Below, in pieces: positions 30,001 to 36,000 of a DNA stretch of 64,000 bases (positions within the stretch are counted from its first letter, which is position 1; every line of letters begins with the position of its first letter). The stretch is taken from NCBI GenBank assembly GCA_049840735.1, contig JASGJN010000017.1, forward strand, positions 416,001 to 480,000. Direction: 5' to 3'. The DNA is from Anaeromyxobacter sp. (GTDB taxonomy: Bacteria; Myxococcota; Myxococcia; Myxococcales; Anaeromyxobacteraceae). The position numbers were made by a program.

Positions 30001-33000
30001 TTCTCCGTGGTGGCCATGGAGATGCGGAACCTGGCCGAGCAGTCCAAGCAGGCCGCGGTCCAGATCCGCGCCATCCTGCAGGAGATCCAGCGCGGCGCCC
30101 GCGAGGCGGCGGCGGCCACCGACGAGGGCGCCAAGCGCGCCGGCGCGGCCGTGACGCTCTCCCGCAGCGCGGGCGACGCCATCGAGGGGCTCGCGTCGGT
30201 GATCAAGGAGTCGGCCCTGGCCGCGCGCCAGATCGCCGCCAACACCCGGCAGCAGACCATCGGCGTCGAGCAGATCGTCTCGGCCATCTCCGAGCTCTCG
30301 ACGGTGATCAACGAGAGCGCCGAGCGCACCCGGTCCATCGAGCAGAACTCGGCCTCGCTGGCCTCGGTCTCCGAGCAGCTGGCGGCGACGCTGCAGAGCT
30401 ACCGGGTGTGATGCGGGGGCGTCAGGCCCCTGCCCTTCGACTCCGCGCCCGCTGCGCGGGCGCTACGCTCAGGGCGAACGGGGGCCGCGCAGGCCGGAGG
30501 CCCGTTCATGCGAACGGGGGCCGCGGCCGGCTCGCCCATGCGGACGCTTGCGCAGGCTGGAAACCCGCTCGTGCTGAGCGTAGGGCGCCGGCGGCTGCGC
30601 CGCGCGAACGGAGCCTCCCGGGACCGCCACGGCTTCCTCCCGTTCGTGTTGAGCGTAGCGCCGGCGGCTGCGCCGCGCGAACGGAGCCTCCCGGGGACCG
30701 CCACGGCTTCCTCCCGTCCGTGCTGAGCGTAGGGCCCGGCGGCTGCGCCGCGCGAACGGAGCCTCCCGGGACCGCCACGGCTTCCTCCCGTTCGTGCTGA
30801 GCGTAGGGCCGGCGATCTCGACACCCGGAACAGTGGGCCGGCCCGGAGTCGAAGCACGAGAAGGGGCGGCTCACCGCCTGCGCCCCGCCCCCACCTTCCT
30901 GGCGGCCTCGGCCAGGTTCTCGTAGCGCTGGCATCCCACCACGCGGACCGGGTCGTCCGCGCCATCCGCCACGAAGTCGAACGTCGGGACGCCGCGCACG
31001 CCGGCGGCCAGCGCCTGCGCGCGCGCCTGGTCGACGCGGGCCAGCAGCGCCGGCTCGGCGGCGGCCTGGACCGCGGCCTCGGGATCCAGCCCCACCTCGC
31101 GCGCCAGCCAGCGCAGGTCCTCGTCCTCCTCGATGCCCCAGCCGCGCCGCCAGTAGGCGTCGAAGGCCAGGGCGCGGAAGGGCTCCAGCCGGCCCTGATC
31201 GCGGGCGTGCTCGGCCGCGGCCAGCGCCCGCCGGGTGGAGGCCAGGTGGGCGGGGGGGCGAAGGTCGTCGATGCCGAACCCCTCTGCGAACCCCTTCACG
31301 TAGCCCAGCATGGCCCCGGCCTGGGGGAAGACCTGGGCCAGCGGGACCCCGCCGCGCGGCGTGCCGGGGTGGAGCTCGTAGCCAATCCACTCCACCGGCA
31401 GCTCGAACTCCTCCACCAGCCGGACCAGGCTGCTCCGCTCGGCGACGAAGCAGAACGGGCAGATGAGGTCGGAGTAGAGCCGGAGGCGCGCGGGCACGGC
31501 GGTGAGTTAACCCGCCGGTGCCCCCCGCACCACCTTCGCTCACCCGCCGCGGCCTCCCGCCGCGCCCGGGCTGAACCGACGCCGCCGGCGTGATAAATCT
31601 CCACCCCCTTGCCGGTCCGCTGCCATCGCTCCCACCGCTGTCCCCGCTGCTGCTTCCCGCCCGAGCTGTGCCTGTGCGCGGAGGTGCCGGCCCTCACCCC
31701 GCCCTGCCCGTTCGTCATCCTGCGCCACATGAGCGAGCGCGAGCGGCTCACCAACACCGCCCGCTGGGGCGCCCTGGCGCTGGCGGGCACGCAGGTGGTG
31801 GAGCACGGCAACCCCAGCGGCGCGGTGGACGGGGAGGCGCTGGCGGTGCCGGGCAGCGTGCTGCTCTTCCCGGCGCCGGGGGCCCCGCCGCTGACGACCT
31901 TGCCGTCGCGGGTGATCGTGCCCGACGGCACCTGGACCCAGGCGCGCCGGATGATCCAGCGCGTGCCTGCGCTGCGCACCCTCCCCCGCCTGCCCCTGGC
32001 CGGGCCGCCCGCCGGCCTCCGCCTCCGCCGGCCGCACCGCGCCGACGGCATGTCCACGCTGGAGGCCATGGCCGGCGCGCTGGCCGCGCTGGGCCGGCCG
32101 GACCAGGCCGAGGCGCTGCTCCAGCTCCACGCCCGCGCCGTCGAGCGCGTCATGCGCCTCAAGGGCAACTGGGACGAGCCCTGGGCCGTGGCCGCCCGGC
32201 GCTGAACACCCGAGAGACACGAATGCCCTTCCGCTTCCAGCCCGGCGCCGAGGACCCGACCACCCGGGCCCGCCGCGGCGTCTTCACCACCCGTCACGGC
32301 CGCGTCGAGACCCCGGCCTTCATGCCGGTCGGCACCCGCGCCACCGTCACCGGCCTCACCCCCGGCGACCTGGTGGCGCTCGACGCCCAGATCATCCTGG
32401 GCAACACCTACCACCTGCTGCTCCGGCCCGGCCCGGAGGCCTTCCGCGAGCTGGGCGGGCTGCACCGGTTCATGCACTGGGACCGGCCCATCCTCACCGA
32501 CTCGGGCGGCTTCCAGATCTTCTCGCTCTCCGAGGACCGGACCATCACGGAGGAGGGCGCCACCTTCCGCAGCTACATCGACCAGCGGCGCCACGTCCTC
32601 TCCCCCGAGTCGTCGATCGCCATGCAGACCGCGCTCGGCTCGGACGTGATGATGGTGCTGGACGTCTGCCTGCCCTCCACCTCGCCGCGCCCCGAGCTGC
32701 GCGCCGCCATGGACCGGACCCACCGCTGGGCGCTGCGCAGCCTGGCGGCGCGGACCGATCCCGAGCAGGCGCTCTTCGCCATCGTGCAGGGCGGCCTCGA
32801 TCCCGAGCTGCGCGACGCCTCGGCCCGCTTCCTGCGCGAGCACCCCTTCGACGGCTTCGCCATCGGCGGCGTGGCGGTGGGGGACACGCGCGAGCAGCGC
32901 GCCGAGGTCATCGCCCGGGCAGCCGAGCTGCTCCCGCGCGACCGGCCGCGCTACCTGATGGGCGTGGGGACGCCGCCGGACCTGCTCGAGGCCGTGGCCC

Positions 33001-36000
33001 ACGGCGTCGACATGTTCGACTGCATCATCCCCACCACCATGGCCTGGCAGGGGACCGCCTTCACCTTCTCCGGCCGCGTCCGCCTGACCCGCACCGAGCT
33101 GCGCCTGGCCGACGTGCCGCTCGACCCGAGCTGCCCCTGCCCCACCTGCCGCGACCACTCGCGCGCCTACCTGCACCACCTGTTCAAGTGCCGCGAGCCG
33201 CTGGGGCCGCGCCTGGTCTCGATCCACAACCTGCACCACTACCTGGAGCTGATGCGCCGCGTCCGCGCCGCCATCGAGGCCGGCACCTACGCCGCCTTCG
33301 CCCGGGCCACGCTGGAGGCGCTCGACCGCCACGAGCACGACCGCTCGGCGCGGCCACCGGGGCGGCGCGTCGAGACGGTCGCGCCGGCGCCGGTCCGCGA
33401 GGTGGTCCAGCCGCTCGATCCCGCCGCGGCCAGCGCCGGCGCGCGCTTCGAGCTGGTGCGGACCTCGCAGGGCGCGGCCGCGGTGCGCGACGCCGAGGCC
33501 GGCGAGGTGATGCACCCGGTGATCGGCCCGGCGGTGGAGTCGGAGCGGCTCTACGTGGCCCAGGGGCGGCTGCGCGAGCGGCTGGCCCAGCCCGGCCCGC
33601 CGCTGGTGCTGCTGGACGTTGGGCTGGGGGCCGGGTCCAACGCGCTGGCCGCGCTGCGGGCGGCCCGGGCCGCGCCGGCGGACGGGCGGGCGCTGGAGCT
33701 GGTCAGCTTCGAGCGCGAGCGCGGCGCGGCCGAGCTGGCCGCCTCCGAGGCCGGCGTGGCCGCGCTGGGGCTCTCGGCCGAGGACGCCGCGGCGCTCCGC
33801 GCCCTGCTGGTCACCGGCCGGCACGAGGAGCCCCGCGCCCGCTGGCGGCTGGTGGAGGGGGATCTGCTGGAGACGCTGCCGGCGCAGGCGGTGGAGGCCG
33901 AGCTGGTCTTCTGGGATCCGTTCAGCCCCAAGGCCAACCCGGCGCTCTGGACCCAGGCCGCCTTCGAGGCGGCGCGGGCCCGCTGCGGCCCGCGGGCGCT
34001 GCTGCTCACCTACAGCACCGCCACCGCCATCCGGGCCGCGCTGCTGCTGGCCGGCTTCTTCGTGGGCGTGGGCGACGCCTCCGGCCCCAAGGAGCAGACC
34101 ACCGCCGCCGCCACCGACCCGGCGCTGCTGGAGCGCCCGCTGGACGCGCGCTGGCTGGCGCGCCTGGCCCGCTCCTCGGCCCCCTTCCCGCCCGACGCGC
34201 CGCCCGACGCGCTGGAGCGGATCTCCGCCCACCCACAGTTCAGGTGAGCCGCATGGACTACCGCCCCGCCCGCTGGCTCCCCGGCGCCCACGCCATGACC
34301 GTTTTCGCCAGCGTGGCCCGCCCCTGGCCGCGGCCGGCCCCCCGCCGCGAGCGCTGGGAGCTGCCGGACGGCGACTTCCTCGACGTGGACCGCTTCGCGG
34401 GGCCGTCGCCGGACGCGCCGGTGCTGGTGGTGCTGCACGGCCTGGAGGGCTCGTCGCGCGCCCCCTACGTGCGCGGCCTGGTGGCGCTGGCCCGCGAGCG
34501 CGGCATGGGGGCGCTGGCGCTCAACTTCCGCGGCTGCTCCGGCGAGGAGAACCGGCTGGCGCGCTTCTACCACTCCGGCGAGACCGGCGACGTGGCCTTC
34601 GCCGTGGATCGCCTGGTGGCGGAGCGCCCCGGCCGCCCGGTGCTGGTCTCGGGCTTCTCGCTGGGCGGCAACGTGGTGGCCAAGTACCTGGGCGAGCGCG
34701 GCGAGGACCTGCCGCCGGAGCTGCTGGGCGGCGCCGTCATCTCGGTCCCCTTCGACCTGGCCCGCTCGGCGGCCGCCATCGACGGCCCCGGCTTCTGGAA
34801 CTGGGTCTACCGCGAGCGGTTCCTGCGCCGGCTGCGGCGCAAGGCGCTGCACAAGGCGCGGCGCTACCCGGAGGTCTTCGACGTGCCGGCCGTCCGCGCG
34901 GCCCGCACCTTCTCCGCCTATGACCAGGTGGTCACCTCGCGCATCCACGGCTTCGCCTCGGCCCTCGACTACTGGACCCAGTGCTCGGCCGGGCGCTTCA
35001 TCGGCGGCGTGCGCCGGCCGCTGCTGGCGGTGGCCGCGCTGGACGATCCCATGGTCCCGCCCGGCTCCCTGCCGCTGGAGGCCGCCAGGCAGAACCCGTT
35101 CGTCACCCTGGTCACCACCGACGCCGGCGGCCACGTGGCCTTCGTGGCCGGCGCGCCGTTCTGGCCCAGCTTCTGGGCGGAGGCGCGGGCCGTGGGCTTC
35201 CTGGGCGACGTGGTGGAGGCGGCGCGGCGGGCCTAGCTGTCCGCGCTGGCCACCGGCCCGGCCCCGGCCTTCGGCCAGAGCCCGCGCGCCCAGCGCCAGA
35301 GCGCCTTGCCCAGCCAGAGCAGCGCGAAGCTGGCGAGCAGCACGCCCACCGCGGTGGCGAAGGCGGCGCCGGCGCCCAGCGTCGGCCCCACCCGCTGCCA
35401 CAGGCCCGGGAAGACGGACCAGCCGTACACCAGCGGCAGGTGGAGGGCGTAGACGCCCAGCGAGGCCTTGCCGAGCGGCGCCGCCAGGCGGGCCACCCGC
35501 TCCGGCACGACCGAGAGCGCGGCCAGCACCAGCAGCACCGCGCCGATGCGGAACGCGATCAGCAGCGGGTCGCCGGGGAACCGGTCGCCCACGCCGAAGG
35601 GCGCGGTCGCGGCCACCAGCGCCGCGCCCAGCCCCGCCTCGAGGAGCGCGCCGCGCCGGTCCTGCGGGATGAGCAGCCCCACGGCCGCGCCGGCGAAGAA
35701 GTAGCCGGCCCATGGGACGACCGGGAAGCGCGAGCTGCCGCCCACCACCTGGACCACCGCCAGCCAGGGCAGGTCCGGCAGGGAGGCCACCTGCACGTAG
35801 TCCGGCAGCGGCGCGCTCCGCCCCAGCACCACGCAGAGCGCGAGCAGCCAGAGGAACGCCACCCCCTGCCGCCAGCGCGCCCAGGGGAGCGCCAGGACCA
35901 GCGAGGCCGCGCCCAGCGAGAGGCCGATCACGTGCAGGGCGTCGAAGGCCAGGAAGCCGGCCCAGATCTCGCGATCACCGGCCAGCAGGCGCTCGAGCGC

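Follow-up and report, generated by a model that had tools for sequence, protein, structure and literature searches.

The fusion gene and its neighbours

The window analysed was a stretch of 64,000 nucleotides from the genome of Anaeromyxobacter sp. GCA_049840735.1, and the features mapped within it all lie on its forward strand. A single uninterrupted ORF (32223–34247) encodes a protein of 674 aa in which a tRNA-guanine transglycosylase (TGT) domain is joined to an MnmC2/MnmD-type domain, confirming an earlier note that had described a TGT–MnmD fusion as one gene. The N-terminal domain (aa 1–372; 32223–33338), a diverged bacterial TGT termed TGT2 here, was recognized by PF01702 (aa 15–366, E value 8e-148), by TIGR00430 (448 bits, cut-off 306.75) and by superposition of its structure model on Zymomonas mobilis TGT 1Q2R (rmsd 1.2). 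Identity to tRNA TGT structures was 45 %, and among the 50 matches listed in a fold search with the predicted structure there were TGT chains only. A variable Pro/Ala-rich linker (aa 373–404; 33339–33434), gapped across homologues and with pLDDT below 50 at aa 373–392 of the model, leads to a putative SAM-dependent amine methyltransferase domain of a TGT2-linked subfamily (aa 405–674; 33435–34247), which aligned with E. coli MnmC and with Aquifex MnmC2 3VYW (E value 6e-13). PF05430 matched aa 538–630 over its cut-off, whilst the MnmC2 model NF033855 gave 79.5 bits against a cut-off of 136. A promoter and terminator scan at the locus revealed neither. TGT2 fusion proteins are currently annotated as plain Tgt, and the ESM Atlas yielded only clusters bearing this automatic name.

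A DTW-domain gene encoding a TapT-like acp-transferase (31609–32205, start codon uncertain; PF03942, E value 4.6e-32) ends 17 bp before the fusion, and an α/β hydrolase gene (34253–35236; PF00561, NF008218 below cut-off), a local neighbour, starts 5 bp after it. The start previously assigned to the feature, 31684, falls within the DTW gene. The position of the fusion behind a DTW gene was found at eight of 10 loci in the same genus, but hardly beyond it: DTW was upstream of TGT2 at none of 10 loci in other Anaeromyxobacteraceae genera, in none of 20 other Myxococcota stretches, and at only two of 72 distant loci where 800 bp or more of upstream sequence was available, both in Bdellovibrionales. 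The genome contains three DTW genes, and in relatives such genes occur regardless of the TGT2–MnmD module. DTW was rejected as a member of a conserved module because its adjacency is nearly confined to the genus, and no neighbour family recurred across phyla as a third conserved partner in the 30 cluster representatives scanned.

Active sites of the two domains

Judged by its sequence, the TGT2 domain combines a complete bacterial preQ1-type active site with a remodelled RNA-reading patch. In Z. mobilis (Zm) numbering, D102, D156, Q203, G230, V233, M260 and D280 were present in all 104 non-redundant TGT2 sequences and C158 in 103; C158 and V233 are markers of a preQ1-type pocket (PMC3660597). 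The catalytic D102 and D280 and the CCCH zinc ligands of bacterial Tgt were intact, whereas the conserved bacterial pair R286 and R289 was lost, in agreement with the earlier claim that the catalytic Asp and Zn residues are kept and the basic patch is changed. In the protein encoded here, catalytic D266 (Zm D280) is followed by the patch T272/W275/Q276 (Zm R286/R289/N290; 33018–33050), as placed by PDB alignment and conservation. R286 and R289, numbered as in Z. mobilis TGT, are residues which we take to read the anticodon; no passage stating this role was found in the literature search.

The ranking of R286/R289 by JS divergence was partly circular, the groups having been picked by the R286/R289 motif; non-circular evidence comes from methyltransferase-picked loci, from the counts of TGT2-motif loci and from the canonical partners. 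At loci chosen via the methyltransferase alone, R289 was absent from 42 of 42 motifs and R286 from 41 of 42, and both were present in the other tgt of all 39 carrier genomes. New conserved basic residues occur in TGT2 at Zm240 and Zm304, positions near the E. coli stem-binding K292/R320 are still basic, and the dimer-interface residues F92, Y330, H333 and E339 are mostly retained. Likeness within rows was higher for TGT2 (58 %) than for canonical Tgt (46 %). TxAWQ and K52T, thought earlier to mark all copies, were found only in an Anaeromyxobacter-like subclade, W289 occurring in 17 of the 104 sequences and K52 being retained in 46; K52T, E235D and W289 were rejected as family-wide signatures since they are confined to it. 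The anticodon loops of the tRNAs in this genome gave no pointer to the TGT2 target.

MnmD enzymes N-methylate a primary aminomethyl group at base 34. The fused MnmD domain possesses, as far as alignments can tell, a complete SAM/amine-methylation site, with the SAM motif and a D178-type base: E497, D565, F567 and K623 correspond to E101, D178, F180 and K236 of E. coli MnmC, whose roles have been described (PMC3648344). D565, G467, G469 and E428 were found in all 105 TGT2-linked MnmD domains, 103 of which also had Met at aa 430, whilst D565/K623 occurred in 120 of 120 close homologues. These domains formed a subfamily of their own (branch support 100/99), apart from the ordinary MnmC/MnmD of the same genomes, a separate copy of which was found in 10 distant genomes. 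Five stand-alone members of the subfamily had no TGT in frame. The TGT2-linked methyltransferase was the only PF05430 match in nine of nine Myxococcaceae-like genomes and in 25 of 43 distant genomes.

Distribution of the pair and absence of MnmE and MnmG

On phylogenetic grounds TGT2 is a distinct TGT subfamily, lying on one side of a branch with support of 100 and represented in Myxococcota, Verrucomicrobiota and Bdellovibrionota; Myxococcus xanthus DK 1622 is among the members of a TGT2 cluster. The normal tgt reported earlier beside the fusion was located on another contig of the same genome, its product 48 % identical to TGT2, in a queA-like..tgt..yajC/secD-like neighbourhood (neighbour names from sequence, with no profile scan). 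Of 50 TGT2 carriers searched, all had a second tgt match and 49 had QueA. QueC, QueF and QueG were found in the present genome; QueF was found in 60 of the 72 genomes searched, including three non-carriers; among 49 distant metagenome-assembled genomes, 11 gave no QueF match.

Among 80 loci chosen by the TGT2 motif alone, 72 had a methyltransferase region in the same ORF, seven stopped at a contig edge and one had no methyltransferase. At least five of the 72 ‘fused’ loci (L093, L095, L101, L123 and L130) encoded a truncated methyltransferase without the catalytic DxFSP motif beside an intact TGT2, indicating that TGT2 can persist without the methyltransferase. Both genes were retained where they lie 12–20 kb apart, five of five Anaeromyxobacteraceae genomes without the methyltransferase had a lone canonical tgt, and the TGT2 and MnmD trees, compared by eye, shared several groups. 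The two domains come and go as a pair, in genomes that also have canonical Tgt, QueA and, mostly, QueF. The methyltransferase, described as a possession of the whole family, was kept in 33 of 39 Anaeromyxobacteraceae genomes but was missing from the other six, all of which also lacked MnmE. That the pair belongs to a different tRNA modification module, as had been proposed, is supported by the well-supported TGT2 branch, the separate MnmD subfamily and the constant second tgt.

Absence of MnmE and MnmG throughout the family was upheld, neither MnmE above cut-off nor the MnmG C-domain being found in any of 81 Anaeromyxobacteraceae genomes; the best TIGR00136 score in the present genome was 31.6 bits. 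The tie between the module and this loss that the earlier note implied, as cause or replacement, was not sustained: MnmE/MnmG, the upstream supply of nm5U, are missing in this family and present in most other carriers, MnmE being kept by 93 of 100 methyltransferase-bearing Myxococcaceae-like genomes and by 44 of 50 distant carriers. In another MnmE-less family (f3), no methyltransferase match was obtained in five of five genomes. MnmA was retained in five of five Anaeromyxobacteraceae genomes. MnmM was detected in none of nine genomes of this family and none of 20 of Myxococcota, MnmL in none of two and none of five, respectively, and Elp3 in none of five genomes of this family. MnmM occurred in only three of 63 genomes, the three searched genomes with a decayed methyltransferase, all of one lineage, a pattern to be predicted were nm5U the normal substrate of the fused domain. 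Codons ending in A are rare in the present genome (AAA 0.7 %, GAA 3.4 % and CAA 2.3 % of their pairs), which may explain why loss of MnmE/MnmG is tolerated in such a GC-rich genome; C34 isoacceptors are present. The loss amounts to a natural experiment: the MnmD domain is intact in genomes that should lack what MnmD usually acts on.

A candidate pathway, its alternatives and known systems

Probably, the product of the fused pair is a hitherto undescribed tRNA base; the pair would not stand in for MnmE/MnmG, whose loss would be a separate event. We lean, by a little, towards a two-step addition to the queuosine pathway. TGT2 would exchange a guanine for preQ1 drawn from the cell's own pool, most likely at G34 of a tRNA ignored by canonical Tgt; G34-C35, as in tRNA-Cys GCA or tRNA-Ser GCU, is a guess. 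A subset of the GUN tRNAs would be a distinctly less probable target, and another RNA hairpin less probable still. MnmD would then methylate the aminomethyl arm of preQ1, giving 7-(methylamino)methyl-7-deazaguanosine (methyl-preQ1), which should block QueA. That bacteria of several phyla, M. xanthus included, have a second TGT whose anticodon pocket is rewritten, and use it to install preQ1 at G34 in a further class of tRNA, for conversion to methyl-preQ1 by the fused MnmD, is a broader proposal which we hold tentatively and with more doubt than confidence. No report of methyl-preQ1 as a tRNA wobble nucleoside was found in the literature searched; its precedent is in phage DNA, where it is made by DpdM, which is unrelated to MnmD (bioRxiv 10.1101/2023.04.13.536721).

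The two domains might instead act independently, MnmD as an ordinary nm5(s2)U34 methyltransferase and TGT2 as an enzyme placing preQ1, or Q via QueA, in an extra tRNA. MnmE in most carriers, where there is no other MnmD or MnmM, the appearance of MnmM exactly where the fused methyltransferase has decayed, the near-constant QueA and the listing of the fusion among genomes having MnmAGE in the part of Jaroch et al. that concerns it (bioRxiv 10.1101/2023.12.21.572861) all agree with this; the intact MnmD domain in a family where neither MnmE nor MnmG was detected, the separate ordinary MnmC/MnmD of 10 genomes, the joint loss of the domains and the groups shared by eye between their trees do not, and we regard it as unlikely. 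A still smaller chance is given to TGT2 being a redundant isozyme, or a QTRT2-like companion of canonical Tgt that mainly binds tRNA or forms a heterodimer and so brings the methyltransferase to Q-family tRNAs. The constant second tgt and largely conserved dimer interface would suit such a role, but the residues of the catalytic site and pocket do not vary, in contrast to those of non-catalytic QTRT2 (PMC6165067), the loss of R286/R289 is fixed, and TGT2 rows are more alike than canonical ones.

Replacement of MnmE/MnmG at U34 by the module, with DTW, for example by exchanging in a uracil modified beforehand, for methylation by MnmD, would accord with the family-wide absence of both enzymes alongside a mostly kept MnmD and a retained MnmA. 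It is very improbable and was rejected on the co-occurrence of the module with MnmE; the guanine-specific pocket is also unchanged, MnmE and the methyltransferase are both missing in six family genomes and in f3, and A-ending codons are rare, with C34 isoacceptors present. Barely any weight attaches to the idea of a module of three enzymes, with DTW transferring an aminocarboxypropyl group onto the preQ1 product: the 17-bp gap on one strand and the two Bdellovibrionales loci speak for it, but not the lack of adjacency elsewhere in the family and at nearly all distant loci, nor the occurrence of DTW genes independently of the module.

Canonical Tgt modifies U33-G34-U35 in the Asp, Asn, His and Tyr tRNAs, and restriction of bacterial TGT to G34-U35-N36 tRNAs is a long-standing rule. 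If the preQ1 pathway is correct, 7-deazaguanine modification would extend past the four GUN tRNAs, a conserved TGT paralogue whose reading patch has changed would, together with the amine methyltransferase that belongs to it, yield a new tRNA nucleoside, and a second branch would vie with QueA for preQ1. Such a TGT, reading a new RNA code in nature, would also be of use for labelling RNA. A family with MnmA in which MnmE, MnmG, MnmL, MnmM and Elp3 were not found is itself a useful case of decoding with minimally modified U34.

TGT2 resembles bacterial Tgt (TIGR00430; Z. mobilis 1Q2R, E. coli 10FA) in fold, catalytic Asp pair, preQ1-type pocket, Zn site and dimer residues, but differs in its changed R286/R289/N290, in V282 (mostly Ile), in the new R240, R304 and S161-T162, and in being fused or paired with MnmD and always found beside another tgt. 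With MnmC2/MnmD (Aquifex 3VYW; E. coli MnmC N-domain; PF05430), the fusion shares the SAM motif and equivalents of D26, E101, D178, F180 and K236, whereas it scores below the NF033855 cut-off, forms its own subfamily and is kept without MnmE/MnmG. The upstream gene belongs by profile score to the TapT/DTW acp3U transferases (PF03942), as a local neighbour only. The TGT-MnmC2 fusion of Jaroch et al. has the same domain architecture, and the sentence there naming it gives no function, residues or paralogy. A QTRT2-like non-catalytic subunit would have a degenerate active site, whereas the TGT2 residues are intact (cf. PMC6165067). Assignment to the DpdA DNA deazaguanine system was rejected, given the 45 % identity to tRNA TGTs and the absence of recurring dpd or DNA-metabolism neighbours in the 30 representatives. 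The proposed logic, in which preQ1 is inserted and then N-methylated, is that of phage DpdA and DpdM, which form mdPreQ1 (bioRxiv 10.1101/2023.04.13.536721); that system acts on DNA with a DpdA-subfamily enzyme and a methylase of unrelated fold, whereas the TGT2 module pairs a near-canonical tRNA TGT with a Rossmann MnmD.

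The fusion gene and its surroundings

In the window (G000:C17:416001–480000), a single 674-aa ORF (32223–34247) held both domains reported in the earlier note, a tRNA-guanine transglycosylase domain (PF01702, aa 15–366; here TGT2) that scored 448 bits with TIGR00430 (cut-off 306.75), and an MnmC2/MnmD-type methyltransferase domain that matched PF05430 and reached 79.5 bits with NF033855, under its cut-off of 136. GC3 was 0.98. The AlphaFold model (mean pLDDT 92.9) had a disordered linker at aa 373–392, and the TGT part matched the Zymomonas mobilis Tgt structure 1Q2R with an rmsd of 1.2. 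The closest named homologues (69–78 % identity) were Anaeromyxobacter proteins, and family f1 was therefore taken to be Anaeromyxobacteraceae; f2, to whose 90 % TGT2 cluster Myxococcus xanthus DK 1622 belongs, was taken to be Myxococcaceae. The normal tgt said to accompany TGT2 was found on contig C13 of the source genome (48 % identity to TGT2), and QueC, QueF and QueG were present in that genome.

A gene matching the DTW profile (31609–32205) lay 17 bp before the fusion ORF and a hydrolase gene started 5 bp after it. DTW had been proposed as a partner of the module; it adjoined TGT2 at eight of 10 loci in the genus, but at none of 10 other family loci, none of 20 other Myxococcota stretches and two of 72 distant loci, and no other neighbours of TGT2 recurred across phyla among the 30 cluster representatives scanned. 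The source genome had three DTW paralogues, the other two at G000:C20:374459-375007 and G000:C22:317349-317894. Elsewhere in the window, 3.4 tandem copies of a 74-bp GC-rich unit (30564–30814) lay between MCP-like and DsbA-like genes; strict blastn with this unit matched the three local copies only, and a two-copy 110-bp repeat (129–358) looked related to it. In a lipoprotein-like ORF (27549–29108) a beta-propeller-like region came after a collagen-like (GPT)n repeat, as labelled from sequence only, and the minus-strand genes at 36871–39564 presumably encode, to judge from their motifs, an NrfD/polysulfide-reductase-like membrane protein, a ferredoxin and a multiheme cytochrome.

Residues and spread of TGT2

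Residues were numbered as in Z. mobilis (Zm) from the PDB alignment. All 120 close homologues retained the catalytic and pocket residues and were altered at R286/R289/N290; R286, R289 and V282 are taken by us, from work on 1Q2R, to contact U35, a contact that the papers searched did not state. Fusions down to ~40 % identity were recovered among 1.84 billion representatives searched, none with both arginines, and at loci picked via the methyltransferase R289 was missing in all 42 readable motifs (a set including our own locus, and one genome twice) and R286 in 41. The largest differences between 104 TGT2 and 117 canonical sequences, after dereplication, were at Zm 289, 286, 290, 161–162, 304, 240 and 282. 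The claim of K52→T/R and TxAWQ in all copies proved too broad: position 52 was T in 17 and R in 41 of the 104 but still K in 46, and W289 and D235 occurred in only 17. The stem-binding residues of E. coli Tgt, given as K285, K292 and R320 (PMC13416341), correspond to R287, R294 and K322 of the fusion protein by our own count, and the latter two positions were mostly basic across TGT2.

A DNA-pattern search of contigs for the altered patch, which by design excludes the Anaeromyxobacter and Myxococcaceae forms, gave at least 120 loci; 80 with flanks were analysed and 40 short ones left out. The 80 were mostly from Verrucomicrobiota and Bdellovibrionota, with others from Kofleriaceae, Acidobacteriota, Steroidobacteraceae, Spirochaetota and further groups. 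The methyltransferase region lay in the ORF of TGT2 at 72, seven stopped at a contig edge and one lacked it; in at least five of the 72 it was truncated, with the catalytic motif gone. These five, L093, L095, L101, L123 and L130, are Verrucomicrobiota loci in which TGT2 was intact, two of them titled or related to Prosthecobacter. Fifty of the 80 genomes were hand-chosen for longer contigs and spread (the counts take in the unpublished G387, and the claims hold without it); all had at least two TIGR00430 matches, 49 had QueA and 44 MnmE. The 40 non-fusion tgt copies retrieved comprised 39 canonical ones, from 39 genomes, and one third copy. A third tgt-like copy (L231, G357:C44) had a non-canonical motif, G350 also had three matches and G209 had three TGT2-like matches. 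A branch with an SH-aLRT support of 100 set all 52 TGT2 rows apart from the rest of a 110-row tree (quick search, midpoint root). The mixed taxonomy of TGT2 suggests that it may have been transferred between phyla.

The methyltransferase domain and the absence of MnmE and MnmG

The methyltransferase domain aligned to Aquifex MnmC2 and to E. coli MnmC, in which SAM is bound at E101 and RNA at K236, and D178 is the base proposed to activate the amine of nm5U (PMC3648344). The equivalents of D178, E101 and K236, namely D565, E497 and K623, were found in 105, 101 and 95, respectively, of the 105 domains that exceeded 170 aa. An extra PF05430 match occurred in 15 of 43 distant genomes. Among 15 extra copies from 14 genomes, 10 lay outside and five, all stand-alone, inside a 100/99 branch containing all 45 TGT2-linked domains; these five copies (L257–L261) came from genomes that also carried the fusion. 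Four f2 genomes retained both genes 12–20 kb apart, and the single tgt of family genomes without the methyltransferase was canonical in five of five.

The claimed family-wide absence of MnmE and MnmG was confirmed: none of the 81 genomes of the family had MnmE (TIGR00450) above cut-off, where the listed matches spanned the GTPase part only, and the MnmG C-domain was found in none of the 81, 54 of them of high quality. MnmA was present in all five family genomes searched, Elp3 in none of five, and MnmL in none of five genomes searched. One sample of 301 phylum genomes served for both co-occurrence counts (including the unpublished G261, without which the claims hold). The methyltransferase orthologue was found in 33/39 f1, 100/115 f2, 0/5 f3 and 3/7 f5 genomes, so its stated retention in the family applied to all but six, and MnmE (E ≤ 1e-50) in 0/39 f1, 103/115 f2, 0/5 f3, 0/7 f5 and 3/20 f14 genomes. 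Within f2, 93 genomes had both, seven the methyltransferase alone, 10 MnmE alone and five neither. Since kin are not independent, no statistics are claimed. By these counts neither the module nor the loss depends on the other; the loss is real and separate from the module, contrary to the implied tie.

Other Myxococcota lineages in which MnmE was not found are families f3, f5, f7 and f9, the majority of f14, and the genera g17 and g18, so the loss is wider than the family or was repeated several times. Relaxed selection in a GC-rich genome would be the simple explanation of the loss in Anaeromyxobacteraceae. AAA, GAA and CAA made up 0.7, 3.4 and 2.3 % of their respective codon pairs in the source genome (2473 GC3-filtered long ORFs), C34 tRNAs for Lys, Glu, Arg, Gly and Leu were present, and an unassigned ctgg tRNA call is probably Gln. 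Corynebacterium glutamicum, a control, likewise gave no match for MnmE or the MnmG C-domain. The source genome also had tRNA-Arg(UCG) at G000:C14:242810-242884 and G000:C22:644944-645018, together with tRNA-Arg(ACG) and tRNA-Arg(CCG).

Possible function of the fusion

MnmD is known to methylate a primary aminomethyl group carried by base 34 (PMC3648344; Jaroch et al., bioRxiv 10.1101/2023.12.21.572861), and preQ1 at position 34, the product of TGT, bears such a group. In the simplest joint function TGT2 would insert preQ1 into RNA and the MnmD-type domain would then N-methylate the aminomethyl group of the inserted base. This is slightly favoured overall, because the known nm5U source is missing in the family, yet the methyltransferase domain is intact, and because both chemistries match. 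Two observations suggest that TGT2 has a different target from canonical Tgt: its RNA-reading patch has undergone a fixed change, and canonical Tgt and QueA constantly accompany it. Which target this would be is a guess.

Independent activities of the two domains form a possible but clearly less probable reading. Against the joint function, and as an ordinary nm5U role would predict, MnmM occurred in only three of 63 genomes, and these are precisely those with a truncated fused methyltransferase that were searched; all three belong to one lineage. That TGT2 is an isozyme or accessory subunit seems unlikely. Replacement of MnmE/MnmG by the module is very improbable given the f2 genomes holding both and the f3 genomes lacking both, and a DTW-dependent product is, if anything, more doubtful still, as DTW so rarely adjoins TGT2 beyond the genus. 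Overall, the observation in the earlier note was confirmed in part and its interpretation supported in part. What stands of the proposed 'different tRNA modification module' is the conserved TGT2–MnmD pair with its altered patch; the leading connection with MnmE/MnmG and DTW should be abandoned.

A single sentence of Jaroch et al. names a TGT-MnmC2 fusion, among genomes that have MnmAGE, and their supplements may list these proteins. Our searches, mainly of the open literature and partly of the best 30 of 333 matches, listed no paper that addresses what the fusion does, describes a second TGT of this kind for bacterial tRNA or reports methyl-preQ1 in tRNA. Worth keeping is an uncharacterized multi-phylum TGT2–MnmD module with a concrete predicted product, N-methylated preQ1. 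The same product, methylated preQ1, is made by phage DpdA and DpdM, but in DNA (bioRxiv 2023.04.13.536721).
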